Made by a program: the position numbers and the translations under genes. From positions 621-64,620 of the forward strand of contig JAJZNX010000025.1 in the NCBI GenBank assembly GCA_021852275.1: 64,000 nucleotides of DNA. The letters are read 5' to 3'. Below the pieces are notes generated by a model that was not told the origin of the DNA, ran no database searches, and saw only the letters and a list, made by a program, of their open reading frames with translations. This document shows positions 22,291 through 59,929 of the stretch, piece by piece; the stretch's first letter is position 1, and the number at the start of each line of letters is the position of its first letter. Source of the DNA: Planctomycetota bacterium (GTDB taxonomy: Bacteria > Planctomycetota > Phycisphaerae > WQYP01).

Positions 22291-22634
22291 GTTAAAATCC
22301 TTTGTCTTGGGTCCAGGTTACAAAGTAATTTTGGTACTAAGGAACCGGGCAAAAATAACTTCGCACTTTTCGGCTGGCCCTTTTGGCCTCCAGCTTCGTT
22401 GTTCGCTCGTTTCAGACCCACTGCCGGGGTATGCACCTCACTCACGCCTCGCTGGCGGCCAAAATTTCTGCGCCGTAAAACACGAATTTATTTTTGCGCG
22501 GTTCCTAATCGTATCAATTATCCAGAAAATTGCATCAATATACACGCATCGAAGAAGTCCTGCACACTCCATATCAGCGCATGTCCGGTCGCCTGGTCGC
22601 TTGGGTTGCGGTGGAGAGCGACTATAATAGGCAT

Positions 22635-23033: not shown

Positions 23034-23122
23034 GTGATTCCCTTGCGAATTGTGGCGTTTTTTATCAACGATTATCATTCGCAACTGGTGTGGCAGAAGA
23101 TTTGGAAGACCTGGAGATAAAA

Positions 23123-25774: not shown

Positions 25775-25939
25775 TGTTTTCTCCGATGACCCGCCCATTT
25801 GCAGTTTTTTACCGCCAGCCACATCATTCGTCAATGGCCCGGCCAGCGTGGACCTGCCGATTTCCATCCCAAGGCCCTGCCGCTTGCCAAATTGGCCAAC
25901 GGCCTTAGAATGATTGAAATTCCCTCTCCCAAGGGCAAT

Positions 25940-26012
25940 GAGGCCGTAGCTCAGCTGGTAGAGCAACAGACTTTTAATCTGTGGGTCCTGGGTTCGATCC
26001 CCAGCGGCCTCA
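25940..26012 (+). tRNA. tRNA-Lys (anticodon TTT)
   Basis: 73 nt. Acceptor GAGGCCG/CGGCCTC, anticodon loop CTTTTAA, T-loop TTCGATC. Confidence 0.9.
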
Positions 26013-42656: not shown

Positions 42657-45548
42657 ATGACCTCCAGTCGGATACGCCGTGAATTCATCGATTTTTTCGT
42701 GCAGCGCCATGGGCATAAATTTGTCCCATCCAGCCCGGTGGTTCCACATGACGACGCAACGTTGCTGTTTGCCAATGCGGGGATGAACCAGTTTAAGCCG
42801 TTTTTTTTGGGAACGGCTAAGACCAAGGCTACGCGTGTGGCCAATACGCAAAAGTGTATTCGTGCCGGTGGCAAACATAATGACCTGGACGATGTGGGCA
42901 TTTCTCGTCGCCACCACACCTTTTTTGAGATGCTGGGGAACTGGAGTTTCGGCGACTATTTTAAGCAAGGCGCCATTGAAATGGCGTGGGAGTTGTTGAC
43001 CAAGGTGTGGCACCTGGATCCTCGCCGATTGCATGTAACGGTTTACAAAGGCAATCCAGCCGATGGCGTACCAGCCGATGATGAAGCGGCGGAGTTATGG
43101 CGGCGAATCGCCGGCCTTCCCGAGAATCATATCCATCGGTTCGTGGATGAAAATTTCTGGGAAATGGGAGAAACCGGACCCTGTGGACCTTGCACAGAAA
43201 TTTTTATTGACCGTACGCCTGATTTTTCGGGCGGATCACAGGTGAATGGGACCGATCCCCGCGTGATGGAAATCTGGAATCTGGTTTTCATTCAGTACAA
43301 TCGACAGGAAGGCCGTAAGCTTACCCCCCTGCCGCAACGGCACGTGGACACTGGCATGGGACTGGAGCGAATATGCCAGGTGCTGGGCGGATTCTCGGAC
43401 AATTATGCAACAGATCTGTTCACCCCGCTTTTTGCAGCCATTGCGGATATAAGCGGACATCATTATCATGGCACGTTTCCGGCGACGGATGCCAACAGTC
43501 CGATGGAGGCGGAAAATAAAACGCTGTCCCGGGACATCGCCTTTCGCGTGATTGCTGATCACATTCGCGCCTTGACTTTTGCCCTTACAGATGGTGCCCT
43601 GCCTGGCAACGAAGGCCGTGGTTACGTATTACGACGAATATTGCGCCGTGCAGTGCGGTTTGGGCGGCAAAATCTGGGGCTGACTGAGCCGTTCCTGCAT
43701 CAATTGGTGCCGGTGGTATTGCATACCATGCAAACTGCGTTTCCGGAGCTGTCCAAAAATCCGGGGCATGTTGCGGACATCATCAAGAGCGAAGAAATCA
43801 GTTTCAGCCGCACGCTAGATCGCGGCATTGAGCTTTTTCAATTAGCGGCGGATGAGGCCCGCCGCAGCAACACGCAAAGCGTGATTTCCGCCGAGAATGC
43901 CTTTAAGCTTCACGATACATATGGATTTCCGATTGACTTGACGCAGGTGATGGCCCGTGAACAGGGAATGACGGTGGATGTGTCCGGATATGAGGTCCGC
44001 ATGGAAGAGGCACGGCAGAAAGCCCGTTCCGGAGGCAAAACCCCCGAAACTGCACTGACAGACTTGCCCCCGGATATTTTGGCCCGCCTTGCAGACGAGA
44101 ACGTACCGAAAACCGAAGATCGGGCTAAATATAAATCCGGCCCGATTAAGGCAACGGTAGCTGCGATATGGAATGGCCGTGAATTGGTGGATCATGTTTC
44201 CGCGGATACCGCCGACCAGGCTGCCTTAATTCTTGATCAAACTAATTTTTACGCGCAGATGGGTGGGCAAATTGGTGATACCGGCGACATTGCGTCGGAG
44301 CGGGGAAATTTTGCAGTGGAAACCACCCATGCGGTGGGCCGTTATATCCTGCATCGGGGCAAGTTAAAATCAGGCTGGTTGCAACGCGGCGATTCCGTTA
44401 CGTTGCAGGTCCACGCGAACCGCAGTCGCATCGAACAAAATCACACTGGCACGCACCTGGCCAATTGGGCTTTGCGGGAGGTGCTGGGTGAGCATGTGCA
44501 GCAGAAGGGATCCCTGGTGGATGCGGAGAAACTCCGCTTTGATTTCGTGCAGCCACAGCCGCCACCAGATGAACAGATACAACGCGTTGAGGAAATGGTA
44601 AATCAGGCCATTGGCCGGCGATTGCCGGTCTATACCGCCGAAGTTCCGCTGGAAACGGCCCGGCACATCTATTCGCTACGTGCCGTATTTGGCGAAAAAT
44701 ACCCGGAACAAGTGCGCGTGGTAAGCATTGGTGTACCGGTCGCAGAACTACTGGCCCAGCCAGACAACCGGCATTGGCGGAACTTTTCCATCGAATTCTG
44801 CGGCGGAACGCACTTGACGGATACCGGACAAGCTGGGGATTTTGTCATTGTTGCGGAAGAATCGGTCAGCAAGGGTATACGCCGCATCGTTGCTTATACA
44901 GGTGCGACCGCAGCGGCGGCCAGGAGCCTTGCGGTTCACATCGACAAATTGATCATCGCCGCGGAGCGCGCCACGGAAGATCAATTACCGACCGGTTTGA
45001 GCCAGCTCCAGCAGGCCCTTGGTGAAACAGGTGTTCCAGTAGTAGTCCGCCGCCGCGCACAATCGGTTATCCGCACATTGCAGGAAAAAATTAGAGAGCA
45101 GGCTAAACGTAGACAGGTTCCACCGCCATCCCATGTCGGCGACAGTTCGGACATGGATCAACTTTTGGCCGCCGCTGAACCGATTGGCCAGGTGGAATTA
45201 ATTGTCGCGGAGATGGGAGTGAAATCCGCCGATGAGCTACGCGCTACCATGGATGCGGTGAAAAAGAAGCGACCGCAAGGCTTGTTTGCTATTCTGTTGG
45301 GATCTACGGAGACCCCAAAGGATAAGCAAGGCAATGCTCTGCCGGCCAAAGTAAACCTGTTGGCCGCGGTCGGGGATCCGCTGATCGGTAAATTAAAAGC
45401 CGGTGATTGGATTCGCACTGTTGCACCGGTGGTAAGCGGCAGTGGCGGCGGCCGCCCTCAACTGGCCATGGCCGGAGGTAAACAAATCGACAAGCTCGGC
45501 GAGGCGCTGTCCACCGGGCGCGAATTTGCCCGCCAATGCCTGCAATAG
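42657..45548 (+). CDS. alaS: alanine--tRNA ligase
   Basis: 963 aa. IRREFIDFF..HGH..V.SS.V.P.DD.TLLF.NAGMNQFK and FEMLGNWSFGDYFK are present. The editing-domain HTGTH/CGGTH motifs are also present. Confidence 0.95.
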   Translation: MTSSRIRREFIDFFVQRHGHKFVPSSPVVPHDDATLLFANAGMNQFKPFFLGTAKTKATRVANTQKCIRAGGKHNDLDDVGISRRHHTFFEMLGNWSFGDYFKQGAIEMAWELLTKVWHLDPRRLHVTVYKGNPADGVPADDEAAELWRRIAGLPENHIHRFVDENFWEMGETGPCGPCTEIFIDRTPDFSGGSQVNGTDPRVMEIWNLVFIQYNRQEGRKLTPLPQRHVDTGMGLERICQVLGGFSDNYATDLFTPLFAAIADISGHHYHGTFPATDANSPMEAENKTLSRDIAFRVIADHIRALTFALTDGALPGNEGRGYVLRRILRRAVRFGRQNLGLTEPFLHQLVPVVLHTMQTAFPELSKNPGHVADIIKSEEISFSRTLDRGIELFQLAADEARRSNTQSVISAENAFKLHDTYGFPIDLTQVMAREQGMTVDVSGYEVRMEEARQKARSGGKTPETALTDLPPDILARLADENVPKTEDRAKYKSGPIKATVAAIWNGRELVDHVSADTADQAALILDQTNFYAQMGGQIGDTGDIASERGNFAVETTHAVGRYILHRGKLKSGWLQRGDSVTLQVHANRSRIEQNHTGTHLANWALREVLGEHVQQKGSLVDAEKLRFDFVQPQPPPDEQIQRVEEMVNQAIGRRLPVYTAEVPLETARHIYSLRAVFGEKYPEQVRVVSIGVPVAELLAQPDNRHWRNFSIEFCGGTHLTDTGQAGDFVIVAEESVSKGIRRIVAYTGATAAAARSLAVHIDKLIIAAERATEDQLPTGLSQLQQALGETGVPVVVRRRAQSVIRTLQEKIREQAKRRQVPPPSHVGDSSDMDQLLAAAEPIGQVELIVAEMGVKSADELRATMDAVKKKRPQGLFAILLGSTETPKDKQGNALPAKVNLLAAVGDPLIGKLKAGDWIRTVAPVVSGSGGGRPQLAMAGGKQIDKLGEALSTGREFARQCLQ

Positions 45549-45653: not shown

Positions 45654-46967
45654 TCAGCGTCGGCGAATAAAGTGGTGTATTTGTTCGACAACGTACGTAA
45701 GCATGGGAATAGACAGGCCAGGATACACTCCGATCCAGAACGTCTGGTTCATCACACGATCCGCATTAGCCAAGTCCCCCACCACGCGAAAGTGCTGGTC
45801 CCGCATGTACGGTTGTCGAACCAGATTTCCGGCAAACAACAAACGTGTGCCGATATGGTGGCTTTCCAGGTGCTCAATCAATTCCCTGCGGGAAAATGAG
45901 GCGGTGTTGCGTACAGTAATCGGAAACCCAAACCACGAAGGATCACTGCTGGCAGTGGACTGCGGCAGGATGAAATCATCTTGCATATCCAGCAGATTCT
46001 GGCGTAAAAATTGGAAGTTACTCCTGCGTGCTGCGATGAACGCCGGCAGCTTGTCCAGTTGGGCCAGGGCGCACGCCGCCTGCATATCCGTAATTTTCAA
46101 ATTATAACCGGCATGGGAATACGTATATTTGTGATCATAGCCGGCTGGAAGCTCCCCTAGCTTCCAGCCAAAGCGTTTGCCACAGGTGTTATCGTGTCCG
46201 GGCAGGCAGTAGCAATCGCGGCCCCAGTCCCGACAGGATTCAATAATCTGCTTGAGCAGGGGACTGCTGGTAAAAACCGCACCACCCTCACCCATGGTGA
46301 TATGATGCGCAGGATAAAAACTCAGCGTTCCGACATCACCAAAGGTGCCCACCCCCTGTCCGTTCCAGGTGGCCCCAAGAGCATCGCAGCAATCTTCCAC
46401 CAGCCATAGACCACGGCTCTGGCAAAAGTCCCGTACCCGCCCGACATCAAATGGATTTCCCAGGGTATGCGCCACCATCACCGCGCGTGTACGCGGGCTT
46501 ACCGCCGCGTCGAGTTGGCTGGCATCGATATTGTACGTGGGGATTTCCACGTCCACAAAAACCGGGATTGCGCCGTTTTGCATGATTGGATTAACGGTGG
46601 TGGGAAAGCCGGTGGCCACCGTGATAACTTCATCGCCAGGTTGAATGGCGCGAGTTCCCAATTTCGGTGAGCATAAAGCGCTTAGCGCAAGCAAATTGGC
46701 CGATGATCCGGAATTTACGCTCATCGTGTAACGCACGCCGAGAACAGCAGCCAGGCGCTGTTCAAACTGTGCATTAAAACGACCTGCGGTGAGCCAGCCA
46801 TCGAGTACCGCTTGCGTCATCATTTGCAGTTCTGCCTGGTCAAGCACTTTGCCGGATACTGGAACAGGCGAGGTTCCCGGTATAAATGGGTGCGGGGCCA
46901 GCGAAACCTCGGCATATTGGCCGATGGCCTGGAGAATTTGCTCCCGCAACTTTTCCAACTCATTCAT
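45654..46967 (-). CDS. rfbH: CDP-4-keto-6-deoxy-D-glucose 3-dehydrase (E1, PMP-dependent; RfbH/DdhC type)
   Basis: The ATG at 46967 overlaps the rfbG stop (ATGA). 437 aa. [54 protein letters not shown] and [16 protein letters not shown] fit RfbH along its whole length. Confidence 0.9.
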
Positions 46968-48091
46968 GAAGCAGGTTCCTTTGTGGCTACCGGCATCTGC
47001 CGTGCCATGTCCTTGTGGTACTCTTGAATTTGGGTGCGCGTAAGATCTGCCAACGGTTGCCCCATAGCCCAAGCCTGATACCAACGTACCACCTCAGTGA
47101 TGGTCCGTTCCAGCGACCAGCATGGACGCCAGCCGAGCATACCTCGAGCACGCGAACTATCCAGCCGCAATTCCTGCGTTTCGTGTGCCGACGAAGATGT
47201 CGAATCTACCTTGATTGCTGCGCCATCCCCCCACGCCCTGGCTAGTGCTGCCGCCAGCGATTGCACACAACGTGAGTCTTGAGCAACCGGGCCAAAATTC
47301 CACGCCTGACTGTAAGCCGTGCCATCCATCCAAAGCCTTTCGGCCAGCAGGATATAGCCCGCCAGTGAATCAAGTACGTGTTGCCATGGACGAATAGCCT
47401 GCGGACGACGAATGATTGCCGGTTGACCTGCGGCAAAAGCCCGCATTAAGTCGGGAACGAGGCGATCCTGACTGAAGTCTCCGCCGCCAATAACGTTGCC
47501 AGCCCGCGCAGTGGCCAACCCCACACGATGCTCGCTCCAGCGTGTCGGAGGAAAGTAAGATTGGCGGTAGGCCGAGGTAGCAATTTCAGCACAGGCCTTG
47601 CTGCTGCTGTACGGATCAGCTCCACCCAACGGATCATCTTCACGGTAGCCCCACAACCATTCCTGATTTTCATAGCATTTGTCACTGGTAACCACCACGC
47701 AGACCCGTACCGTATCCATATGCCGCAGAGCCTCCAACACATTCACGGTTCCCATGACATTGGTGGAATAGGTTTCTACAGGTTGGTGGTAGGATTGTCG
47801 TACCAGCGGCTGGGCAGCCAGGTGGAATACTACCTCCGGACAGGCCTCCCGCATGGCGAGATTGACGGTTGCGGCATCGCGCACATCACCGGTGAGGCTG
47901 TGCATGGCCGTGCCAACCTGGGCTAACGTAAAAAGCGAAGGATCCGTCGGCGGATCCAGTGCCAAGCCTGTTATTCTGGCTCCGAGGGAACTGAGCCATA
48001 GTCCTAACATGCTGCCTTTGAAACCGGTGTGGCCGGTCAGCAAGACTTTGCGTCCGTTCCAAAAATTAGTATCCATTACCATACCTTCCAC
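46964..48091 (-). CDS. rfbG: CDP-glucose 4,6-dehydratase
   Basis: [31 protein letters not shown] is the characteristic N-terminus. The extended-SDR YSSSK motif is present. Confidence 0.9.
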
Positions 48092-48843
48092 GGGGCCGTG
48101 CTTTCCTGCCAGAGTGTTTCCAGGTATTGCTTGTCGCGCAGAGTATCCATGGGCCTCCAGAATCCCCGGTGTTCAAAAGCCTGAAGTTGTTTTTCTTTCG
48201 CCAGTTGCTCCAGTGGCTGGGCCTCCCACAGCGTGTCATCGCCGGCTATGTAATTGAGGATAGACGGTTTGAGCACAAAGAAACCGCCGTTGATCCATCC
48301 GCCATCACCATGCGGTTTTTCCACAAAATTGGTCACGGTATGGCCACTCAGATTCAGAGAACCAAACCGCCCCGGTGGCTGCACCGCCGTTACTGTCGCC
48401 ATGCACCCATGGCTATTGTGAAACGCAACCAGATTGCGAATGTTCACATCGGCCAGGCCATCACCATAAGTCAGGCAGAAATCATCTGTTCCGATGTAAT
48501 CGCGGATACGCCGGATGCGCCCGCCGGTTTGGGTAGTTTCGCCGGTCTCTACCAGAGTGACGCGCCACGGTTCACTGTGGTTTTGATGTACGCTAAGGGC
48601 ATTGTTAGCTAAATCCAAGGTTACATCAGAACTATGCAACGAGTAATTGAAAAAATATTCCTTGATCATGTAGCCTTTATAACCCAGGCAAATAACAAAA
48701 TCCTGAATGTTATAAGCAGCGTACAACTTCATGATGTGCCAGAGTATCGGCCTACCGCCTATTTCCACCATGGGCTTTGGTCGAGCAACAGTTTCCTCGG
48801 CCAGACGGGTTCCCATGCCACCAGCTAAAATCACAGCCTTCAA
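48076..48843 (-). CDS. rfbF: glucose-1-phosphate cytidylyltransferase
   Basis: MKAVILAGGMGTRL.EET..RPKPMVEIGGRPILWHIMK.Y is the canonical RfbF N-terminus. Confidence 0.9.
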   Translation of the reverse strand: MKAVILAGGMGTRLAEETVARPKPMVEIGGRPILWHIMKLYAAYNIQDFVICLGYKGYMIKEYFFNYSLHSSDVTLDLANNALSVHQNHSEPWRVTLVETGETTQTGGRIRRIRDYIGTDDFCLTYGDGLADVNIRNLVAFHNSHGCMATVTAVQPPGRFGSLNLSGHTVTNFVEKPHGDGGWINGGFFVLKPSILNYIAGDDTLWEAQPLEQLAKEKQLQAFEHRGFWRPMDTLRDKQYLETLWQESTAPWKVW

Positions 48844-48855
48844 AGAGTTAGTCTC

Positions 48856-49800
48856 CTAACAGCACCGGTGTTGCTGCAAAAAATGGGCGGTTTCCATAAT
48901 TTGCTCATCCAGCGAAACAGGTTTCAACCCCAACCAGTTTTCGATACTCCGAATCTCCGTTGGATTACCCACATAATAATCGCTGGGGCCAGGTTTGATA
49001 AATGGGCGTTCTACCTTGACGGTGCCATTCGTGAGCAAACGCACGCAACGCTGGGCCAATTCGCCGATCTCCACCACTTCCGTACCTGCGGTGTCAAAAA
49101 TCGCTGCAGTACCCGCAGGCTGTTCGCCTATCAGTTCTATCACCATCCGCAACAGGGCATCCGCCGGATAATAGGACCGCCATACCGGATGGTCCGCGTG
49201 CACCAGCACGGTCTGCTGATTCAGGCAGTTCAATATCATTGAGGAAATAGCATAACCCTGATGGTTGTTAATATACGCCCCGCTTAAATTAAATATCCTC
49301 GGCATGACCAGACGAAAGCCACGCCGAACCGCCATTTCTGAAAACACCTGCTCGTCTTCATATTTGCATTTTCCGTATATTGCCAGAGGACTGTTTTCAG
49401 CAACAGTTTTGTTGAGGTAGGCATACACGGCCCCGGAAGAAGGTATCATCAGACCAGCTACATTGTTCTGAGTTAAAAAATGTGCCATCATCTGTTGAAT
49501 ATCGAGGTTGGCTTGACGGTCACTGCCTTCAGATTGATTGCCGACTTGCCCCTTGGTTACAAACGCATGATGAAACACCACCACCGGATCATCAAAGGAA
49601 GCATGGGACAAAAAATTCCATGGCTGCATCTTCATACTGCGGCCACAGGCCAATTTCAGCGTACCTTGATGCCGCCCCACCGCGGTAATCCGCGAGTCAT
49701 CCTCCGGTCCACCCATGGCTGCAAGCGCCTCGACGGTCACACGTCCGAGCCATCCTCCAACACCGGTAACAATAAAATGGCAAGCATCCAGCTTCATCAC
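48856..49800 (-). CDS. NAD-dependent epimerase/reductase (extended SDR), first gene of the rfb-like operon
   Basis: 314 aa. A Rossmann-type glycine-rich N-terminus (FIVTGVGGWLG). A YxxxK-like YGKCK motif. Confidence 0.65.
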   Translation of the reverse strand: MMKLDACHFIVTGVGGWLGRVTVEALAAMGGPEDDSRITAVGRHQGTLKLACGRSMKMQPWNFLSHASFDDPVVVFHHAFVTKGQVGNQSEGSDRQANLDIQQMMAHFLTQNNVAGLMIPSSGAVYAYLNKTVAENSPLAIYGKCKYEDEQVFSEMAVRRGFRLVMPRIFNLSGAYINNHQGYAISSMILNCLNQQTVLVHADHPVWRSYYPADALLRMVIELIGEQPAGTAAIFDTAGTEVVEIGELAQRCVRLLTNGTVKVERPFIKPGPSDYYVGNPTEIRSIENWLGLKPVSLDEQIMETAHFLQQHRCC

Positions 49801-49854
49801 AGCACCAACGCAATTATATGCTCGTTACGATATTTTCACATGAGCTTGACGTTG

Positions 49855-49874
49855 CCATCATCCTATTGGATGAT
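49855..49874. promoter_or_regulatory. perfect palindrome CATCATCC-TATT-GGATGATG in the divergent promoter region of the two sugar operons
   Basis: 8-bp arms read directly. It lies just downstream of a TTGACG hexamer (49845-49850). Confidence 0.35.
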
Positions 49875-49909
49875 GAATAAAGCCTCTGGCGGTTGGTAAA
49901 GGAATATGA

Positions 49910-50776
49910 ATGGCGAATGTAAAAATCGGCAAAGATATCATCGGCGAAGGACATCCATGTTATGTGATTGCTGAAATTGGCATCAATCACAATGGCGATG
50001 TGGAACTGGCAAAGAAATTAATCGATGCTGCTGAAGCCGCCGGCTGCAACGCCGTAAAATGCCAGAAGCGGACGGTTGATGTGGTTTACTCCAGGGAAGA
50101 ACTTGCCAAACCGCGGGAAAGCCCGTTTGGCATGACCAATGGCGATTTAAAACGTGGATTGGAACTGGACCTGGCGGCCTATCGGGAAATTGACGCATAC
50201 TGCCGACAAATGGACATGCCATGGTTTGCCTCCTGTTGGGATGAAGCGTCGGTCGATTTTATAGCCCAATTCAATCCGCCATGCTACAAGATCGCCTCTG
50301 CTTCACTCACAGACGATAACCTGCTTCGGCACCACCGGATGAAACGCAAGCCGATTATCCTATCCACTGGCATGAGCACTCTGGAACAAATTGACCACGC
50401 CGTGGCGGTACTTGGAAAAGATGATCTCATTTTGCTGCATTCAACCAGTACTTATCCCGCCAACTACGATGAGCTAAATCTGCGGTGCATTCCTGTTCTG
50501 CAAAAGCGCTACGGTGTACCCATTGGTTATTCCGGCCATGAAACGGGCTTGCCTTCCTCCGAAGCTGCTGTGGCCTTGGGAGCATGTGTGGTGGAACGCC
50601 ATATTACACTAGATCGGGCCATGTGGGGTTCAGACCACGCAGCTTCGCTGGAACCGAATGGCATAACACGGCTCATGCGCGATATTCGCCTGATTGAGAC
50701 CTCGTTGGGCGATGGTATCAAGCGAGTTTATGAGCGAGAGCAGCCGATTCTGAAAAAGTTGCGCCGCGTGCCATAG
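49910..50776 (+). CDS. NeuB-family PEP-condensing sugar synthase (N-acylneuraminate synthase-like, no SAF domain)
   Basis: 288 aa. CYVIAEIGINHNGD...A..LID.A...G..AVK.QKR, STGMST and GYSGHE are NeuB/SpsE motifs. Confidence 0.8.
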   Translation: MANVKIGKDIIGEGHPCYVIAEIGINHNGDVELAKKLIDAAEAAGCNAVKCQKRTVDVVYSREELAKPRESPFGMTNGDLKRGLELDLAAYREIDAYCRQMDMPWFASCWDEASVDFIAQFNPPCYKIASASLTDDNLLRHHRMKRKPIILSTGMSTLEQIDHAVAVLGKDDLILLHSTSTYPANYDELNLRCIPVLQKRYGVPIGYSGHETGLPSSEAAVALGACVVERHITLDRAMWGSDHAASLEPNGITRLMRDIRLIETSLGDGIKRVYEREQPILKKLRRVP

Positions 50777-50837
50777 TTAACTTCGGCGCAATCTGTTTGT
50801 AATTTGCCCATTCTCGACAAGAAAAGGGGGGCTTGGC

Positions 50838-52634
50838 GTGTCCATTAAACTTTCTGATTATGTTATCGACTTTCTTGCCCAGCGAGGCGTACGCCATGTG
50901 TTTTTTATTCCCGGCGGAGCCGCGATGCACCTGAACGATTCGCTGGGCCGATGCAAGCAAGTTGAATATGTGTGCAATCTGCATGAACAGGCCAGCGCCA
51001 TCTGCGCGGAGGCTTACGGCAAAATCACCAACAATATCGGTGTAGCCATGGTTACCGCCGGCCCCGGTGGCACGAATGCCATTACCGGCATTGCCGGGGC
51101 CTGGCTGGATTCCACACCCATGATGGTAATTTCCGGGCAAGTCAAGCGAGCAGACTTGAAACGGAACAGCAATGTTCGCATGTTGGGCGTGCAGGAAATC
51201 GACATTGTTACAATTGTCTCCAGCATCACCAAATATGCCGTGACTATTTTGGATCCGGCCACCATACGCTTTCATCTGGAGAAAGCCTTTCATCTGGCGA
51301 CTTCCGGCCGAAAAGGGCCGGTGTGGATCGATATCCCGCTGGATGTGCAAGCGGCGATGATTGAGCCGGCAACGCAAGAAGGTTTCAAACCGGAAACCCC
51401 GGTCAAATCAACTGTTCTTGCCCAGCAGGTTGCCGATCTGATCACTTTGTTAAGCACTGCCCACAGGCCGGTCATGCTGGTTGGTAACGGTGTTCGGCTG
51501 TCCGGAGCCATCCCGCAATTCCACGATCTACTCAGGTACGTTGAAATGCCGGTGTTGACGAGTTGGCTGGGTATGGATCTGATTGCTGATGACCATCCAC
51601 TGTTCATGGGCAGGCCGGGGTCACTAGCACCGCGCGGAGCCAACTTTACCCTGCAAAATTCTGATTTACTGCTGGTGGTGGGATCCCGGCTTGATATGGC
51701 CATGACGGCTTATTCGCATGAGCATTTTGCCCGAGTCGCTGTAAAAATTATGGTCGATGTGGACATGGCAGAAATCGCCAAAATGAAAACCCCCATTGCC
51801 CTGCCCATTTGCACCGACGCCCGCGACTTTTTCGCGGAAGTTTTGCGCCAACTACCAAATCTTTCCCGCAGATCCTGGCCCGCCTGGACGCATCGCTGCC
51901 GGGAATGGAAGGCTCGCTATCCGCTAGTACTGCCCGAACATCGCGATTGTACAAAACCAATAAGTATGTATTGGTTTTCAGAGGTGTTATCAGAAGAAGC
52001 TGGTGAAAACGATGTTGTTGCTCCGGGCAGTTCGGGCTTCGCAGCGGAAATTTTTCTTTTGGGTTTCAAAGCCAAGTCAGGTCAGAGAATTTTCCATAAT
52101 CGTGGAACCGGATCCATGGGCTTTGGCCTTCCCGCGGCCATTGGCGCATGCTTGGCCAGCGGCAGGAGAAGAACGATTTGCGTGGAAGGTGATGGCGGTT
52201 TCCAGATGAATGTACAGGAACTTGCCACCGTCGCCAGACTCCAGTTGCCAACTAAGTATTTTGTCATCAACAACAACGGCTTTGCTTCCATTCGGACATC
52301 CCAGCGTGTGTATTTCAAGCAGTTGGTAGGAGCAGACCAAACCAGCGGATTGACCTTGCCAGACATTACCAAAGTGGCGAAGGCGTATGGAATTGCGACG
52401 CTTCGGATTGACGACTCAGCGCGACTGCGGACAGGTATACGGGAGGCTTTATCTTTGCCAGGCCCTGTTGTAGTTGAGGTACTTGTGGCACCGGATGAAG
52501 AGCGTATTCCCCGAGTTGTTTCGATGCAGCAGCTCGGCGGTACGATGGTTTCCAAGCCACTGGAAGACCTTTACCCGTTTCTGGAGCGAGATGAATTCAT
52601 GGCGAACATGCTTATTCCCCCTGTGGTGGAATAG
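50838..52634 (+). CDS. thiamine-diphosphate-dependent enzyme, acetolactate-synthase large-subunit-like
   Basis: 598 aa with a GTG start. GGAAMHLND, TAGPGGTNAITGIAGAW.DS.P and the ThDP motif GDGGFQMN..ELAT......INNNG are present. Confidence 0.85.
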   Translation: MSIKLSDYVIDFLAQRGVRHVFFIPGGAAMHLNDSLGRCKQVEYVCNLHEQASAICAEAYGKITNNIGVAMVTAGPGGTNAITGIAGAWLDSTPMMVISGQVKRADLKRNSNVRMLGVQEIDIVTIVSSITKYAVTILDPATIRFHLEKAFHLATSGRKGPVWIDIPLDVQAAMIEPATQEGFKPETPVKSTVLAQQVADLITLLSTAHRPVMLVGNGVRLSGAIPQFHDLLRYVEMPVLTSWLGMDLIADDHPLFMGRPGSLAPRGANFTLQNSDLLLVVGSRLDMAMTAYSHEHFARVAVKIMVDVDMAEIAKMKTPIALPICTDARDFFAEVLRQLPNLSRRSWPAWTHRCREWKARYPLVLPEHRDCTKPISMYWFSEVLSEEAGENDVVAPGSSGFAAEIFLLGFKAKSGQRIFHNRGTGSMGFGLPAAIGACLASGRRRTICVEGDGGFQMNVQELATVARLQLPTKYFVINNNGFASIRTSQRVYFKQLVGADQTSGLTLPDITKVAKAYGIATLRIDDSARLRTGIREALSLPGPVVVEVLVAPDEERIPRVVSMQQLGGTMVSKPLEDLYPFLERDEFMANMLIPPVVE

Positions 52635-52661
52635 GATGGTTTTACAAATTTGGAGCTGGTC

Positions 52662-53501
52662 ATGACACTGTTGGGTATCATGCAAGGGAGGTTATTGCCC
52701 CCCATAGCTGAACGTATCCAGTGTTTTCCGCGAGGCCGCTGGCAGGAAGAATTTTCACTCGCTGCTCAGATAAAACTCGACGCCATCGAGTGGATTTACG
52801 ATGCCTACGGGGCGGATGACAATCCGCTTGGCACGGATGCTGGAATATCGTTTATGATGGCTCTCTCGCAACAGCACCAAATTCAGGTCAAGTCCCTTTG
52901 TGCAGACTGGTTTATGGATTTCCCACTGGTTCGTGCAACCGCTGAGCAAACCAGGGAGCGGACGCGCCAGTTGAGCTGGTTGTTAGGCCAATGTCAAAAA
53001 GCGGGCATCCGGCGGGTGGTGTTGCCCTTTGTGGATTACTCAAAGATTACCGATGAGCAGGATACACAGACCGTCCTTGCTGTTCTGCATAGCATTTTGC
53101 CCGTTGCCGAAAATCTGGCCATAGAAATACATCTGGAAACCTCACTTCCTCCAGCCTCTTTTGCTGATCTGCTGGCCCATATTCCACATCCGCTCATCAA
53201 GGTCAACTACGATTCTGGCAATAGCGCAGCGCTAGGGTATGATATGCAAGAGGAGTTTGTCGCGTATGGTAAACGAATTGGCAGTGTGCATCTCAAGGAT
53301 CGCCGGCTTCATGGAGGGACGGTGCCGTTGGGAACTGGCAATGCGGATTTTACGGCACTTTTTGAATGCCTGAACGCATTCCAGTACGTCGGCGACTTTA
53401 TCTTGCAGGTGGCTCGCGGTACCGCTGGGGATGAAATGGCTTGGATCACGCGCAACATAGCGATACTGAAGCCTCACCTTCAGCTTTGGCTTGAAAACTG
53501 A
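52662..53501 (+). CDS. sugar-phosphate isomerase/epimerase (xylose-isomerase-like TIM barrel)
   Basis: ATG at 52662 with GGAG 6 nt upstream. The family pattern includes IEIHLE and NYDSGN. Assigned by overall resemblance. Confidence 0.6.
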   Translation: MTLLGIMQGRLLPPIAERIQCFPRGRWQEEFSLAAQIKLDAIEWIYDAYGADDNPLGTDAGISFMMALSQQHQIQVKSLCADWFMDFPLVRATAEQTRERTRQLSWLLGQCQKAGIRRVVLPFVDYSKITDEQDTQTVLAVLHSILPVAENLAIEIHLETSLPPASFADLLAHIPHPLIKVNYDSGNSAALGYDMQEEFVAYGKRIGSVHLKDRRLHGGTVPLGTGNADFTALFECLNAFQYVGDFILQVARGTAGDEMAWITRNIAILKPHLQLWLEN

Positions 53502-53508
53502 GAAAAGC

Positions 53509-54285
53509 ATGGATCTGAACCTGACCAACCAAGTGGCGTTTGTGGCCGGTTCTTCGCGGGGAATTGGCAAAGCAATTGCAGAGAGATTTTTGCTGGAAGG
53601 ATGCCGCACCGTTATTACCGGCCGAACGGTAGAGGACATCAAGAGAGTCCATGCAGAGTTTACACAACGCTTCGGCTGCGATCGCCTGATGGCTTTGCCC
53701 GGTGATTTGACAGACTTAAGTACAATCCGGCATGCCGTCCTGCAAGTGCAATCAAAATGGGGTGATATCGATTGCGCCGTGGCAAACATTGGGACCGGCC
53801 GAGGTCAGTCCGGCTGGGATATCAGCGATTCGCAGTGGACTGAAATTTTTCAGATGAACCTATGGAGCAGCGTACGGCTTATTCCGGAAATTCTGGCGCC
53901 AATGGTTCGTCGTCAATGCGGAAGTGTGGTATTCATTTCCTCCATTACCGGAATGGAAACCACTGCCGCTCCACTGCCATACAGCGCCGCCAAAGCGGCT
54001 CTACTGAATTATGCCAAGAACCTGGCCAGGCAGGTTGGTCCATATCATGTGCGCGTAAATTCCGTGGCACCTGGAAATATATTATTTCCAGGAGGCTCAT
54101 GGGATCGGCGTAAAACCGATAATCCCCAGACTGTTGCTGACTATATTAATGCCGAGGTGCCGTTGCGGCGTTTCGGCAGGCCGGAAGAAATTGCTGATCT
54201 TGTAGTTTTTCTTTCCTCCGATCGCGCCAGCTTTATCACTGGTTCCTGCGTTGTGGCCGACGGTGGCCAGACTCGCAGCATCTGA
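53509..54285 (+). CDS. short-chain dehydrogenase/reductase (FabG-like)
   Basis: VAFVAGSSRGIGKAIA (TGxxxGIG), YSAAKAA (YxxxK) and PGNILFPG are present. Confidence 0.85.
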   Translation: MDLNLTNQVAFVAGSSRGIGKAIAERFLLEGCRTVITGRTVEDIKRVHAEFTQRFGCDRLMALPGDLTDLSTIRHAVLQVQSKWGDIDCAVANIGTGRGQSGWDISDSQWTEIFQMNLWSSVRLIPEILAPMVRRQCGSVVFISSITGMETTAAPLPYSAAKAALLNYAKNLARQVGPYHVRVNSVAPGNILFPGGSWDRRKTDNPQTVADYINAEVPLRRFGRPEEIADLVVFLSSDRASFITGSCVVADGGQTRSI

Positions 54286-54301
54286 ACGTGGAGAATCCAT
54301 C

Positions 54302-55159
54302 ATGCCACGCAGAAATTCCTCCAATAAATCATCGGCATTGGCCAGCCAATTTGATTTAACCGGGCGCACCGCCATCATCACCGGAGGTGCGGGACTGCTT
54401 GGCAGGCAGCACGCTCAGGCCATCGCCAGTGCCGGCGGCGTTCCCGTGATCGTGGATCTCGCCACGGCCCAGCCTGCCAGGCAGGCTGCCAAAGTAGCAC
54501 GCGATTGGAAAGTCTCAGCCATGGGAGTGGTGGCGGATATCACCGATGCCACTCAGGTGAAAAACCTGGCGGCCACCGTGTTGAAACGTTTTGGACGAGT
54601 GGATATTTTAATCAATAACGCCGCCAATAACCCCAAGGTTGAAGATGCCAGCAAAACACCATGGAGTCGATTGGAAGACTTCCCATTGGCAATTTGGCAA
54701 GCCGATCTGGCCGTAAGCCTCACTGGGGCGTTTTTATGCAGCCGCGAGTTTGGATCGTTAATGGCCCGCCAAGGCAAAGGCGTCATTATCAACGTCGCTT
54801 CGGATCTGGCAATCATCGCGCCAGACCAACGGCTTTACCGGCGCAAAGGCGTTCCCAACAACCGGCAACCGGTAAAACCCGTAACCTACTCCGTTGTAAA
54901 ATCCGGCCTGCTCGGGTTAACGCGATATCTGGCCACCTATTGGGCGGACCGTGGGGTACGGGCCAACGCCCTCTCGCCGGGAGGAATTTTTAATGGGCAA
55001 TCCGATGAATTTGTGAAGCGACTCAAAAATCTCATACCCATGGGCCGCATGGCCAGACTGACCGAATATCAAGCGGCGATGATATTTTTGTGCTCCGATG
55101 CCTCGTCATACATGAATGGGGCAAATTTGGTTATCGATGGCGGAAGGAGTTGCTGGTGA
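54302..55159 (+). CDS. short-chain dehydrogenase/reductase
   Basis: ATG at 54302. AIITGGAGLLGRQHA, NNAA and YSVVKSG (YxxxK) are present. Confidence 0.8.
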   Translation: MPRRNSSNKSSALASQFDLTGRTAIITGGAGLLGRQHAQAIASAGGVPVIVDLATAQPARQAAKVARDWKVSAMGVVADITDATQVKNLAATVLKRFGRVDILINNAANNPKVEDASKTPWSRLEDFPLAIWQADLAVSLTGAFLCSREFGSLMARQGKGVIINVASDLAIIAPDQRLYRRKGVPNNRQPVKPVTYSVVKSGLLGLTRYLATYWADRGVRANALSPGGIFNGQSDEFVKRLKNLIPMGRMARLTEYQAAMIFLCSDASSYMNGANLVIDGGRSCW

Positions 55160-55995
55160 ATTTTAACGCCAATACCCTTTTTTCTCTCACGGGTAAAACA
55201 GTGCTCCTCACCGGAGCGTCAGGATTTCTGGGCCGAACCATGGCCGAAGCCATACTGGCAAATGGTGGACGCCTGGTAGCCCTGGGACGTTCCGAGCGAT
55301 TGCAAGAGCTATGCCGACAATGGACTGCCACTTTTGGCCCGCAGCAAGTCATCAGTCACAGAATCGACATGCACGACCATAGCAAGCTTTCATCGCTGCT
55401 TGATCATATTGTCCAACAGGAAGGCTTTATTGAAGTCCTGATCAACAATGCCCATGAGCTAGGTTCTTCCACCGGATTCAACACGCCAATGGGATCGATC
55501 GAAAACAGTAATCCCGATCAATGGGCACGGAACTTTGCCGGCGGCGTGCACTGGCCTGTGCTATTGGCTCAAAAACTCGCACCGGCCATGAAAGCTCATC
55601 ACCGTGGCAGTATCATCAATATAGCTACGATGTATGCCGTGGTTGCACCAAACCCACACTTGTACGAGGGAACGACGTTTCTTAATCCACCAGCATACGG
55701 TGCCGCCAAGGCGGCGATGCTGGCCTTAACCCGGTACATGGCCTCTTTTTGGGGAACCGCTGGAATTCGCGCCAACGCTATCTTACCAGGCCCCTTCTCG
55801 AATACCCAGGATTCCGGGCCTAACAGTGTCAAAAACGATGATGCTTTTCTTGATCGGTTACGGGTTCGAACATGCCTGGGCCGGGTTGGCCAACCCGCGG
55901 AACTTGCCGGCGCAACCCTGTTTCTTGCGTCAGATGCATCCTCCTATGTAACCGGGCATGCCTTGGTCGTCGACGGTGGGTGGACCATTACCTGA
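55156..55995 (+). CDS. short-chain dehydrogenase/reductase
   Basis: The GTG at 55156 overlaps the upstream stop (GTGA), with GGAAGGAG upstream. VLLTGASGFLGR, NNAH and YGAAKAA (YxxxK) are present. Confidence 0.8.
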   Translation: MNFNANTLFSLTGKTVLLTGASGFLGRTMAEAILANGGRLVALGRSERLQELCRQWTATFGPQQVISHRIDMHDHSKLSSLLDHIVQQEGFIEVLINNAHELGSSTGFNTPMGSIENSNPDQWARNFAGGVHWPVLLAQKLAPAMKAHHRGSIINIATMYAVVAPNPHLYEGTTFLNPPAYGAAKAAMLALTRYMASFWGTAGIRANAILPGPFSNTQDSGPNSVKNDDAFLDRLRVRTCLGRVGQPAELAGATLFLASDASSYVTGHALVVDGGWTIT

Positions 55996-56081
55996 ATATA
56001 CCCACAACTGTTATTCTCAATTTGCCCCGACAACAATATGAGTAACATTATCAACGAATAGTCAATGATCGGAATGTGTGC

Positions 56082-56570
56082 ATGGCTACTTATACGCTCA
56101 AATCCGAGTCTATCTCGGCCGTCATCTTTGATTTCGACGGGGTATTTACGGACAATAAAGTTTACGTCTTTGAAGATGGCCGCGAGGCCGTAGCCTGTAA
56201 TCGTTCCGATGGTTACGGCATCAGTATGCTACGTAAAACCAACATCCCCCTGCTGGTTCTTTCCGCGGAAGAAAACCCGGTGGTGGCCGCACGCTGCCGC
56301 AAGCTTTCCATTGAATGTATCCACGGCGTAAAAGATAAACTCCCCGCATTGCGGCAATGGCTTGTTGAGCAAGCCGTGGACATTCGACATACGGCTTATG
56401 TGGGTAATGATTTAAACGATTTAGCCTGTATGCAGGCGGTGGGCTTTCCCATTGCCGTAGCAGATGCCTATCCGCAAATCAAGACTGTGGCCAAACTGGT
56501 GCTCAAGGCCAACGGTGGCCATGGGGCCGTGCGCGAAGTTTGCGATCTGATTCTCGCCGGCTACAGGTGA
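56082..56570 (+). CDS. HAD-IIIA phosphatase, KdsC (3-deoxy-ulosonate phosphate phosphatase) family
   Basis: AVIFDFDGVFTDN (DxDG), SDGYGISMLR and VGNDLNDL match the KdsC/YrbI pattern along the full 160-aa length. Confidence 0.8.
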   Translation: MATYTLKSESISAVIFDFDGVFTDNKVYVFEDGREAVACNRSDGYGISMLRKTNIPLLVLSAEENPVVAARCRKLSIECIHGVKDKLPALRQWLVEQAVDIRHTAYVGNDLNDLACMQAVGFPIAVADAYPQIKTVAKLVLKANGGHGAVREVCDLILAGYR

Positions 56571-56944: not shown

Positions 56945-57904
56945 ATGGATAACCGTATCGAATGCGAGCTACTTATGAAACATATCAGCATACTCACCCC
57001 CTGCTACAACGAAGAAGCCAACGTCCGCGAAATGTATGAAGCTGTTAAGAAGGTATTTTCATGTTCATACCAATACACTTATGACCATTTGTTCATTGAT
57101 AACGCCTCCAAAGATAAAACACCGGTCATTTTGAGGGAAATTGCGGCACAGGACAAGAACGTCAAAGTTATTTTTAACACGCGTAACTTTGGCCATATCC
57201 GCTCCCCCTATCATGGGCTGCTGCAAACAGCCGGCGATGCAACCATCGGACTGGCGTGCGATTTTCAAGACCCGCCGGAACTTATCCCGCAGTTTCTGGA
57301 ACACTGGGAACGTGGCTTTAAGGTAGTGCTTGGTGTTAAAGCCGCATCAGACGAATCGGCCGTGATGTTCGCGTGCCGCAGCGCGTATTATAATCTCATC
57401 AACCGGCTCGCAGAGGTCAACCTCGTGAAAGGAGCCACTGGGTTTGGCCTATACGATCGTACAGTAGTCGAAGCATTAAGGCATATCGACGATCCTTATC
57501 CATACTTTCGTGGGCTGCTATCCGACATCGGGTACGAAACCGCCACCATCGCGTATCACCAGCCTGCCCGTCGCCACGGTCTGACAAAAAATAATTTTTA
57601 CACACTTTACGACTTGGCCATGCTTGGCATTACCAACCATTCCAAAGTTCCGCTGCGCCTGGCCACGATGGCTGGATTCGCAATGTCCGCCATAAGCCTG
57701 CTGGTGGCATTGGGATATTTTATCGCCAAACTTGTCAATTGGAATCATTTCACGCTGGGCATGGCTCCGGTGATTATCGGCCTGTTCTTTTTTTCTTCTG
57801 TGCAACTCTTTTTTATCGGGATTCTGGGCGAATATATCGGGGCCATTCACACGCAAGTACAAAAGCGTCCGCTGGTGATCGAAAGGGAGCGGCTGAATTT
57901 TTAG
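56945..57904 (+). CDS. GT2 glycosyltransferase with two C-terminal TM helices (polyprenol-phosphate sugar transferase, ArnC/GtrB/DPM1-like)
   Basis: ISILTPCYNEE.NV, FIDNASKDKT and the CDFQDPPE (DxD-like) motif are present. Two C-terminal hydrophobic helices. An alternative start is at 56975. Confidence 0.85.
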   Translation: MDNRIECELLMKHISILTPCYNEEANVREMYEAVKKVFSCSYQYTYDHLFIDNASKDKTPVILREIAAQDKNVKVIFNTRNFGHIRSPYHGLLQTAGDATIGLACDFQDPPELIPQFLEHWERGFKVVLGVKAASDESAVMFACRSAYYNLINRLAEVNLVKGATGFGLYDRTVVEALRHIDDPYPYFRGLLSDIGYETATIAYHQPARRHGLTKNNFYTLYDLAMLGITNHSKVPLRLATMAGFAMSAISLLVALGYFIAKLVNWNHFTLGMAPVIIGLFFFSSVQLFFIGILGEYIGAIHTQVQKRPLVIERERLNF

Positions 57905-59497: not shown

Positions 59498-59929
59498 TTA
59501 CGTGCCCATACCGCGCTGATGTAATTTTATCACCGTATTCGAAAGTCGCATCTGTTGTTTTATCTGCTTGAAGATTTCTTCCTGATACATCCAGGAGGAG
59601 ATCAGAATAGGCTCCGAGCGACCATGCAATTCCGTCGGAGCTAAAATTCGTCGACCTGCAATACGCCTGCTGCGAATTCGTTCGCTCGAGTCTACAAAAG
59701 CCGCAATTTGGTCAACTCGCAGCAAGCCGGCCGCCAACAACCGGTGGGTCAGAGAGCCTACGCCCCAGATGATGAGTTTTTTTCCACGACGCGCCGCCTG
59801 GTCAATGATTCGACATACTCGTCGGTCCGCGACTCTAGATGCAGCGACGTATCGTTGCAGTGCGTGCTGGCAGTGCTGGTCCCTGCTCACCTTCACCCCC
59901 CCCCCCCTGCCTGTCGGTACAAACCGCAC
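59498..59929 (-). CDS. C-terminal domain of a sugar C-methyltransferase (separate ORF only because of the G12 tract)
   Basis: KKLIIWGVGSLTHRLLAAGLL...IAAFVDSSERIRSRRIAGRRILAPTEL...PILISSWMYQEEI follows the TylCIII-type C-terminal domain pattern. Confidence 0.55.
   Translation of the reverse strand: MRFVPTGRGGGVKVSRDQHCQHALQRYVAASRVADRRVCRIIDQAARRGKKLIIWGVGSLTHRLLAAGLLRVDQIAAFVDSSERIRSRRIAGRRILAPTELHGRSEPILISSWMYQEEIFKQIKQQMRLSNTVIKLHQRGMGT

Follow-up and report, generated by a model that had tools for sequence, protein, structure and literature searches.

A NeuB-type synthase beside a YerE-like carboligase: a candidate pathway to a branched CDP-3,6-dideoxyhexose in Planctomycetota and other phyla

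Described acyl-branched sugars and the planctomycete locus

Among bacterial sugars that carry an acyl branch, yersiniose takes a C2 branch from pyruvate as donor, and the E3 reductase gene ddhD is present in that system. In Yersinia pseudotuberculosis, where yersiniose A is made by DdhA-D, YerE and YerF, a thiamine diphosphate (ThDP)-dependent enzyme places the acyl branch at C-4 of CDP-4-keto-3,6-dideoxy-D-glucose and the branch carbonyl is then reduced (PMC9306805). Steitz et al. (2022) brought the acyl-branched sugars under a "unifying scheme", in which clusters are defined by deoxy-keto-sugar genes, a ThDP enzyme, a pyruvate aldolase and an NAD(P)H reductase (PMC9306805). In the erwiniose-type route the aldolase yields a 4-hydroxy-2-oxo acid, a YerE-like enzyme decarboxylates this acid and adds it to CDP-4-keto-3,6-dideoxy-D-glucose, and a reductase finishes the branch, and polyhydroxylated C6 and C8 keto acids have been proposed as donors for caryophyllose and gastriose (PMC9306805). 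YerE-like enzymes use C2-C8 keto acids (2025 review), and ErwE, MMAR_2332 and MyGE accept C4-C8 4-hydroxy-2-oxo acids (PMC9306805; 2025 review). Here we analyse a stretch of 64,000 nucleotides from a Planctomycetota bacterium (GCA_021852275.1, contig JAJZNX010000025.1, positions 621 to 64,620; hereafter the window), in which rfbF, rfbG and rfbH stand beside genes for a YerE-like ThDP enzyme, a NeuB-type synthase and a KdsC-type phosphatase. With a probability of about 0.6, we read this cluster as one pathway, predicted to make a CDP-3,6-dideoxyhexose with a long hydroxylated branch at C-4 and to deliver it via a lipid carrier to the cell envelope.

Genes were assigned from an open reading frame (ORF) map, Pfam, NCBIfam profile cut-offs and PDB sequence matches, and all functions given below are assigned by homology and synteny. 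Eleven genes were confirmed at 45654-56570 (Table 1) and, as the initial annotation had described them, they form two divergent sets: a short-chain dehydrogenase/reductase (SDR), rfbF, rfbG and rfbH on the minus strand, and a NeuB lacking the SAF domain, the ThDP enzyme, a TIM (triosephosphate isomerase) barrel, three SDRs and a KdsC-type phosphatase of the haloacid dehalogenase (HAD) family on the plus strand. The coupling it reported for these genes is confirmed by the sequence. The ATG of rfbH overlaps the stop codon of rfbG as ATGA, the overlap of the rfbG start with the rfbF stop codon reads ATGGTAA, and the start of SDR3 overlaps the stop codon of SDR2 as GTGA; the other plus-strand junctions are short gaps with no overlap. 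The extent given to the cluster proved too narrow, for the functional unit continues to ~62309. In a Bryobacterales locus (L047) the whole set is carried by one tightly packed co-directional operon in the order rfbF-rfbG-rfbH-NeuB-HAD-ThDP-TIM-SDR1-SDR2-SDR3-extended SDR-C-methyltransferase-GT2 (GT2, glycosyltransferase family 2), and the two divergent operons of the window therefore appear to be one functional unit.

RfbF, RfbG and RfbH all score above exact-function cut-offs and on this basis are genuine deoxysugar genes: RfbF reaches 455 bits against a cut-off of 300 for the equivalog TIGR02623 (255/255 profile positions matched), RfbG 486 against 278 for TIGR02622 and RfbH 735 against 423 for NF011936. 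The E1 3-dehydrases are marked by a C-x57-C-x-C-x7-C [2Fe-2S] motif and by a His that replaces the pyridoxal phosphate lysine; RfbH has C194-x57-C252-x-C254-x7-C262, and His221/His222 in FYPAHH stand at the aminotransferase Lys position. No DdhD-like E3 protein with a Fer2 or FNR-type domain was found by Pfam in the scanned window ORFs (up to 45.7 kb, ORFs with 150 or more amino acids (aa), together with the ORFs of the cluster region). A regular-expression scan for E3 in the window and 88 fetched loci was also without a hit, a weak negative given its crude motif and the lack of a positive control. The electron donor of RfbH could be either a housekeeping reductase or the product of a gene elsewhere.

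The closest counterpart is the erwiniose-type cluster, represented by ErwE/ErwF/ErwI/ErwJ of Pectobacterium atrosepticum and by the cluster that encodes JanthE, an enzyme that joins alpha-keto acids to ketones (PMC12188165, PMC12247030). In Janthinobacterium sp. HH01 (AMWD01000002.1 4131597-4153429; L088) rfbF, rfbG and rfbH are followed by the JanthE gene, an extended SDR, an AcetDehyd-dimer acetaldehyde dehydrogenase, a 4-hydroxy-2-oxovalerate aldolase (HMGL-like and DmpG_comm), a second extended SDR and a GT2. What JanthE acts on in its host has been described as unidentified (PMC12188165); its gene context points to 4-hydroxy-2-oxopentanoate and CDP-4-keto-3,6-dideoxyglucose. The rfbF-rfbG-rfbH set, the YerE-like ThDP enzyme, extended SDRs and the GT2 are common to this cluster type and the window, and neither the JanthE cluster nor the window encodes an E3 gene; none was found within 10 kb of JanthE, nor in the related locus L086. 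The two differ in how the donor would be made, since erwiniose-type clusters obtain 4-hydroxy-2-oxopentanoate from a BphI/BphJ-type aldolase and acetaldehyde dehydrogenase, whereas the family of the window has a NeuB and a KdsC-type phosphatase. The ThDP enzyme of the window also has the canonical GDG motif where JanthE has CDG.

Set against the cluster definition of Steitz et al. (2022), the window thus has the deoxysugar genes, the ThDP enzyme and the SDRs, but NeuB and HAD genes in place of the aldolase. Compared with the yersiniose system, it has a module predicted to make a long keto acid and no E3 gene in the cluster. The predicted product is chemically nearest to caryophyllose (Mycobacterium marinum MMAR_2331-2333) and gastriose (M. 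gastri MyGE/MygI/MygF), C12-C13 sugars with C6-C8 donors; for those donors, however, class II pyruvate aldolases have been proposed as the source, not phosphoenolpyruvate (PEP) condensation and dephosphorylation, and the hosts are mycobacteria, whereas the window family occurs in Planctomycetota, Acidobacteriota and Verrucomicrobiota. The pairing of a PEP-condensing synthase with a KdsC-family HAD is that of the Kdo-8-P, KDN-9-P and Neu5Ac-9-P systems (KdsA/KdsC; KDN of Bacteroides thetaiotaomicron). Unlike those systems, the window has no KdsB or NeuA that we could find, its NeuB lacks SAF, and its proteins miss the NeuB/PseI and KdsC/KDN9P equivalog cut-offs. The initial annotation held that the cluster matched no known pathway. 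This claim needs qualification, because the cluster fits the 2022 acyl-branched scheme (PMC9306805), with the NeuB/KdsC module replacing the aldolase. It is best described as a variant of the acyl-branched-sugar pathway (yersiniose, erwiniose, caryophyllose, gastriose) that is widespread in uncultured and environmental phyla.

The putative carboligase and its predicted ulosonic acid donor

The ThDP enzyme carries the motifs HEQ49-51 and GDG451...NN. Its best PDB match is JanthE (8rph, 385 bits), followed by 5ahk (286) and E. coli IlvB (269); 5ahk was deposited as "acetolactate synthase II, large subunit" and is PpYerE, the other YerE-like enzyme with a structure named in the 2025 review. The identity with JanthE is 35% over the full length, and the two enzymes have in common a C-terminal extension, G-T-x-V-S-x-P-L-E-D-L, which is invariant in the ThDP family of the window and which the alignments to PpYerE and IlvB do not reach. 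The analogy with YerE drawn in the initial annotation is thus borne out, JanthE being the closest solved structure; the YerE-like enzymes compared were JanthE and PpYerE.

The thousands of homologues of this enzyme are labelled merely "acetolactate synthase" or "TPP-binding protein", the family is called "acetolactate synthase large subunit" in the sources, and the best NCBIfam match is TIGR00118, all of which would suit an ordinary acetolactate/acetohydroxyacid synthase (ALS) for branched-chain amino acids that lies in a sugar cluster by chance. The TIGR00118 score, however, is 383 bits against a cut-off of 538, and the enzyme falls below every other ALS, glyoxylate carboligase and related NCBIfam cut-off as well. 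The identity with E. coli IlvI is ~30%, neither the window nor any of the 88 loci gave an IlvH-like small subunit, NeuB, HAD, rfbFGH and GT2 genes rather than ilv genes are conserved beside it, and JanthE matches far better than any ALS. An ordinary ALS identity is therefore rejected on profile cut-offs, the lack of an IlvH-like gene and synteny, and we regard this explanation as effectively refuted on these grounds. The reading of the enzyme in the initial annotation, which was to be given up if the enzyme grouped with true ALS and ilv genes, survives: the ALS cut-offs were failed, and the gene is co-conserved with rfbFGH and NeuB. Nor do the plus-strand genes, as far as their sequences tell, belong to a known, separately characterised pathway, the other outcome named there as adverse. 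The ThDP enzyme is predicted instead to move a decarboxylated ulosonate onto C-4 of the CDP-4-keto sugar.

An enzyme of the NeuB/KdsA type joins PEP to an aldose, and the 3-deoxy-2-ulosonic acid so formed, being a 4-hydroxy-2-oxo acid, falls in the class of donors used by YerE-like enzymes. The short NeuB of the window keeps the metal-binding His residues in SGH208 and ERH229, which align with the SpsE residues, and scores 253 bits against a cut-off of 400 for TIGR03569 (NeuB) and 207 against 340 for TIGR03586 (PseI), thus missing both. We predict that it condenses PEP to make a 3-deoxy-2-ulosonate phosphate. The HAD protein contains the motifs DFDG and GNDLND, lies below the equivalog cut-offs for KdsC (NF007019, 135 against 208) and KDN-9-P phosphatase (NF058599, 104 against 180), and matches the PDB entries 3mmz (2.6e-44), KdsC (~1e-28) and KDN9P phosphatase (1e-20); its predicted function is that of a ulosonate-phosphate phosphatase.

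It is also evident that the presence of the phosphatase depends on the form of NeuB. Relatives were collected by a scan for the ThDP protein with one genome taken per species, which gave 80 loci, and gene presence in them was scored by tblastn with the proteins of the window. The short NeuB and the phosphatase occur together in 49/54 loci, whereas a more distant NeuB is found in 13 loci and is accompanied by the phosphatase in 1/13 (P = 1.2e-8 versus the short NeuB, Fisher test). Eight of the distant proteins were scanned by Pfam. Six are ~500-aa fusions with a cupin/D-lyxose-isomerase-like domain, that of L009 is a 768-aa fusion of NeuB, SAF, an AP_endonuc_2 TIM barrel and CBS, and that of L054 gives a partial NeuB match only. 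The six cupin fusions and the L009 fusion (Table 1) all adjoin a YerE-like ThDP gene and all lack a KdsC-like phosphatase. This covariation fits a phosphorylated aldose as the substrate of the short NeuB, and it also fits a free aldose, from the fused isomerase, as the substrate of the long forms; the fusions tie NeuB to sugar isomerases at the level of domain families.

No CTP_transf_3 domain (NeuA/KdsB) was detected by Pfam in the scanned window ORFs, and tblastn with E. coli KdsB found no KdsB-like gene in the window or the 88 loci, although a divergent NeuA could escape this search. Both this and the lack of an E3 gene agree with what the initial annotation had reported for the window. The missing cytidylyltransferase suggests that the ulosonate is not an end product activated in its own right. 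Because NeuB, HAD and ThDP genes are adjacent across phyla and no CMP-synthetase was found, the ulosonic acid is the most likely donor of the branch. The "branched and/or ulosonic-acid-like" sugar of the initial annotation can accordingly keep both of its elements, refined to one pathway.

The pathway could proceed as follows. RfbF, RfbG and RfbH would convert glucose-1-phosphate to CDP-4-keto-3,6-dideoxy-D-glucose, with E3 encoded elsewhere. The short NeuB would join PEP to an aldose phosphate, giving a 3-deoxy-2-ulosonate phosphate, from which the KdsC-type phosphatase would strip the phosphate by the logic of Kdo-8-P and KDN-9-P, leaving a 4-hydroxy-2-oxo acid. The ThDP enzyme would then decarboxylate this ulosonic acid and add the resulting acyl-anion equivalent to the C-4 ketone, so that a tertiary alcohol with an acyl branch would arise, and an SDR would then act as the reductase of the branch carbonyl, in the role of YerF and ErwF. 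An unusual aldose may be supplied, or the side chain epimerised or deoxygenated, by the TIM barrel together with the three classical SDRs, and the C-methyltransferase, when its frame is intact, would add a methyl group. Finally, the GtrB/ArnC-like GT2 would load the sugar onto polyprenyl phosphate, the flippase-like protein would carry the lipid-linked sugar across the membrane, and the GT-C-like protein would attach it to an envelope acceptor.

Recurrence of the gene set and competing explanations

The 80 related loci span at least 15 phyla. Acidobacteriota contribute the majority, and other bacterial hosts are found in Verrucomicrobiota, Kiritimatiellia, Syntrophales, Margulisiibacteriota, Chloroflexota, Bacillota, Armatimonadota, Nitrospirota, Omnitrophota, Hydrogenedentota, Vulcanimicrobiota, Binatia, and Beta- and Gammaproteobacteria. 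The nearest locus belongs to a Planctomycetota metagenome-assembled genome (MAG) with 76% identity in the ThDP enzyme; the other loci show 50-65%. Two archaeal MAGs, Candidatus Altiarchaeota (L018) and the uncultured archaeon LFW-280_3_2 (L033), have ThDP homologues of 54-55% identity, that of L033 accompanied by an rfbH homologue and by a NeuB-cupin fusion, which suggests either inter-domain transfer of the module or binning contamination.

Flanking genes were counted in the 47/80 loci that have 9-10 kb on both sides of the ThDP gene. NeuB-family genes are present in 43/47 of these full-flank loci, rfbH (within 10 kb) in 33/47, the KdsC-like HAD in 32/47, a 348-aa extended SDR in 27/47, the GtrB-like GT2 in 24/47, the TIM barrel in 10/47 and the BphI/BphJ aldolase-dehydrogenase in 0/47. 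The aldolase counts refer to the BphI/BphJ type, HpcH-type aldolases being outside the searches of relatives; no BphI/BphJ-type aldolase was found by tblastn in the 80 loci, and no aldolase domain by Pfam in the scanned window ORFs. Of the 69 loci with enough sequence upstream of the ThDP gene, 45 carry the short NeuB (55-85% identity) directly upstream and in the same orientation, and in 43 of those 45 the HAD gene is situated between them. No protein of the set is better conserved than the short NeuB (median identity 73%, versus 54% for the ThDP enzyme). The check on synteny called for in the initial annotation thus finds this arrangement again in dozens of loci across at least 15 phyla, which is more than chance.

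Two co-located pathways might also produce such a gene set, one for a yersiniose-like sugar with a C2 unit from pyruvate and the other for a separately activated ulosonic acid of the Kdo, KDN or sialic acid kind. JanthE and MyGE do take pyruvate in vitro, a NeuB with a KdsC-type phosphatase is the known logic of KDN and Neu5Ac-9-P, and the two gene sets of the window lie on opposite strands. Yet pyruvate is rejected by ErwE, whose cluster is of the same type as that of JanthE (PMC9306805). The activation step of the second pathway is also missing, with neither a CMP-ulosonate synthetase in the scanned window ORFs nor a KdsB-like gene in the window and the 88 loci; NeuB, HAD and ThDP genes are contiguous and co-directional across at least 15 phyla, and in L047 they are embedded in the rfbFGH operon. 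We thus consider two separate pathways rather unlikely.

The distribution of rfbH bears on another explanation, in which no nucleotide-sugar acceptor takes part in the reaction of the ThDP enzyme with the ulosonate and the pathway is unrelated to rfbFGH; the enzyme might then be a 2-keto-acid decarboxylase that yields a 2-deoxy-aldose, or a carboligase acting onto a small aldehyde. The 14/47 full-flank loci without rfbH within 10 kb would agree with this, as would the closest planctomycete relative, L087 (GCA_027429575.1, DAICGK010000407.1; 76% identity in ThDP and 85% in NeuB), where several toxin-antitoxin and nucleotidyltransferase/HEPN pairs stand among the cluster genes and no rfb genes occur in the 14.9 kb fetched. 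However, rfbH is within 10 kb in the other 33/47, rfb genes may sit farther off in the remaining loci, and the characterised enzyme nearest to it accepts ketones, is of the sugar-branching type and is encoded in an rfbFGH cluster. An acceptor-free pathway is accordingly judged unlikely.

The single pathway to a branched CDP-3,6-dideoxyhexose remains our preferred reading, and several points weigh against it. Ulosonic acids are mostly cyclic hemiketals and may be poor ThDP donors, by our own reasoning. The identity between the ThDP enzyme and JanthE is a mere 35%, and the PpYerE score is barely above that of ALS. The phosphatase gene of the window ends the operon and does not lie between NeuB and ThDP, so dephosphorylation could follow the coupling. 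An E3 gene was found neither in the window nor in the examined loci, and 3-deoxygenation is therefore a presumption. To these must be added the full-flank loci with NeuB/ThDP that have no rfbH within 10 kb. Finally, the TIM barrel of the window shows no pairwise similarity to the NeuB-fused TIM barrel of L009, and the argument from fusions therefore holds at the level of domain families only.

A broader claim, to which we give slightly less than even odds, is that the recurrent gene set stands for a widespread, uncharacterised class of ~C12-C15 sugars, each built by ThDP-dependent decarboxylation of a NeuB-derived ulosonic acid and its fusion to a CDP-dideoxyhexose, and displayed on the envelope via polyprenyl phosphate. 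Such sugars may occur in Acidobacteriota, Planctomycetota, Verrucomicrobiota and many candidate phyla. In the searchable literature we found no paper joining YerE with NeuB, nor one joining rfbH, acetolactate synthase and neuraminate synthase; the in-silico survey by Krug et al. (2024), which covers over 200 clusters of the YerE-like kind, is outside this coverage and may note the former combination. If the preferred reading is correct, one product would be fed by two chemistries that are normally separate, the PEP-dependent synthesis of ulosonic acids and the ThDP-dependent branching of nucleotide deoxysugars, and sugar-derived keto acids would be added to the donors of YerE-like enzymes, which are sought as biocatalysts for tertiary alcohols. 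Thousands of environmental genes labelled "acetolactate synthase" and "N-acetylneuraminate synthase" would then receive a function, and an unusual envelope glycan would be expected in soil and peat Acidobacteriota and in Planctomycetota, whose surface glycans are almost unstudied.

Accessory and downstream genes and other features of the window

The 313-aa SDR on the minus strand has the motifs GVGGWLG and Y142-x3-K146 and is a candidate for the YerF/ErwF-type reductase of the branch carbonyl. Its similarity to the 348-aa extended SDR encoded after the ThDP enzyme in L086 is weak (22% identity, E 1e-5), and tblastn gave no close homologue among the other loci. To the SDRs of the JanthE cluster the 313-aa protein shows no significant similarity.

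The TIM barrel is weakly similar to UlaE, the L-ribulose-5-P 3-epimerase, and is a putative sugar or sugar-phosphate isomerase, epimerase or dehydratase that may serve in accessory tailoring or in a precursor step. It occurs in 20/80 loci, 17 of them with SDR2, which was never seen without the TIM barrel in related loci. SDR1 orthologues are present in 7 of the TIM-containing loci, and a GFO/IDH/MocA oxidoreductase replaces SDR1 in L024. The TIM barrel and the classical SDRs are thus probably an optional module, which prepares a rarer aldose or tailors the side chain.

Beyond the phosphatase gene, the GT2 matches GtrB sll0501 (5ekp, 1e-46) and ArnC (5e-27) over residues 2-302 and has hydrophobic C-terminal segments in its translation; it scores 202 bits with PgfS and does not reach the equivalog cut-offs of PgfS and ArnC. 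In 42/80 loci a homologue of this GT2, with 54-65% identity, is encoded no more than 10 kb from the ThDP gene. The polytopic LPG_synthase_TM protein, a putative flippase for the lipid-linked sugar, scores 41.8 bits with TIGR00374, just below the cut-off of 43.2, and is confined to the lineage of the window; L024 has GtrA in the analogous place. The 455-aa protein is an all-helical polytopic membrane protein that we tentatively assign as a GT-C-type transferase. It has no PDB sequence match, and its AlphaFold2 single-sequence model (predicted local distance difference test score 47.6) is too poor to use. The L047 cluster holds a PMT_2 GT-C, and related loci have GtrA. The combination of a GT2, a flippase-like protein and a polytopic GT-C candidate is similar to GtrA/GtrB/GtrC and ArnC/ArnT, but the donors in the Gtr and Arn systems are UDP-sugars where a CDP-sugar is predicted here, and the flippase of the window is of the LPG_synthase_TM family, not GtrA. 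A lipid A acyltransferase is also encoded in the window.

The sugar C-methyltransferase-like gene, homologues of which occur in 21/80 loci, is split in two by a +2 frameshift in a poly-C tract at 59896-59907 (plus strand); Methyltransf_14, in the C-terminal ORF, is the C-terminal domain of C-methyltransferases. Three near-identical assemblies have shorter tracts than the 12 bases of the window: L002 has 11, and L001 and L091, in which the gene is intact (407 aa), have 10. A cluster of single-nucleotide polymorphisms follows directly after the tract. The length differences could be explained either by slipped-strand phase variation of a surface-glycan gene or by homopolymer sequencing error; methylation of the sugar in this planctomycete may be switched on and off by the poly-C tract.

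Table 1. Coordinates of the cluster, its borders and the NeuB fusions of related loci. Coordinates refer to the window unless a locus is named.
Feature	Coordinates	Strand	Basis or remark
AlaRS	42657-45548		Cluster border
rfbH/ddhC, CDP-6-deoxy-L-threo-D-glycero-4-hexulose 3-dehydrase (E1), pyridoxamine phosphate (PMP)- and [2Fe-2S]-dependent	45654-46967	-	NF011936
rfbG/ddhB, CDP-glucose 4,6-dehydratase	46964-48082	-	TIGR02622
rfbF/ddhA, glucose-1-phosphate cytidylyltransferase	48076-48843	-	TIGR02623
Divergent extended SDR, 313 aa	48856-49797	-	Pfam Epimerase 8e-13
Divergent intergenic region, 112 bp	49798-49909		Between the two operons; read from sequence
Short NeuB-family synthase, 288 aa, no SAF	49910-50776	+	Pfam NeuB PF03102 3.5e-76
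YerE-like ThDP carboligase (predicted), 598 aa	50838-52634	+	Three TPP_enzyme domains (N, M, C; Pfam)
Xylose-isomerase-like TIM barrel	52662-53501	+	Pfam AP_endonuc_2 7.8e-19
Classical SDR 1	53509-54285	+	adh_short_C2 5.8e-52; YSAAK
Classical SDR 2	54302-55159	+	Resembles gluconate 5-dehydrogenase and KduD (Pfam/NCBIfam)
Classical SDR 3	55156-55995	+	Resembles gluconate 5-dehydrogenase and KduD (Pfam/NCBIfam)
KdsC/YrbI-family HAD phosphatase	56082-56570	+	TIGR01670, 121.8 bits (cut-off 106.95)
GtrB/ArnC-type GT2, predicted polyprenyl-phosphate glycosyltransferase	56975-57904	+	Pfam Glycos_transf_2
Polytopic LPG_synthase_TM/flippase-like protein	57919-59211	-	PF03706 5e-28
Sugar C-methyltransferase-like gene, split in two ORFs	59498-60747	-	Methyltransf_23 (N-terminal ORF), Methyltransf_14 (C-terminal ORF)
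455-aa all-helical polytopic membrane protein	60942-62309	-	Sub-threshold GT87, 23.9 bits (cut-off 25)
ABC-F protein	62355-63953		Cluster border
NeuB-Cupin_2/D-lyxose-isomerase-like fusion	L011:7802-9337
NeuB-Cupin_2/D-lyxose-isomerase-like fusion	L028:8456-9979
NeuB-Cupin_2/D-lyxose-isomerase-like fusion	L033:9036-10568
NeuB-Cupin_2/D-lyxose-isomerase-like fusion	L034:6641-8320
NeuB-Cupin_2/D-lyxose-isomerase-like fusion	L052:7842-9377
NeuB-Cupin_2/D-lyxose-isomerase-like fusion	L076:7895-9412
NeuB-SAF-TIM-CBS fusion	L009:7679-9982

The region between the two operons contains one sigma-70-like match (9/12) at 49846-49874 on the plus strand; promoter and terminator scans gave matches no commoner than in shuffled sequence, and an Rfam scan found three tRNAs only and no riboswitch.

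Elsewhere in the window, a low-GC stretch (45-50%) at ~12000-21850 ends beside tRNA-Arg(CCT) (21777-21850) and encodes a Zot-like assembly ATPase (14326-15552), a REP_ORF2-G2P replication protein (19903-20523) and several ORFs without a family match. The stretch resembles a filamentous, inovirus-like prophage that has integrated into a planctomycete genome. Inside this putative prophage, positions 16001-18000 show a strong local GC skew of +0.24 and an AT skew of -0.18, and a 787-aa ORF (15953-18316, minus strand) with no Pfam or PHROG match spans the skewed part. A 699-aa fusion of glucosamine-6-P isomerase/6-phosphogluconolactonase with PIG-L (GlcNAc deacetylase) is encoded at 23867-25966 on the minus strand, where it adjoins a ComB-like 2-phosphosulfolactate phosphatase (23090-23866) and a BFD-like [2Fe-2S] protein (22530-23033). 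The window also holds planctomycete markers such as DUF1559/N_methyl proteins.

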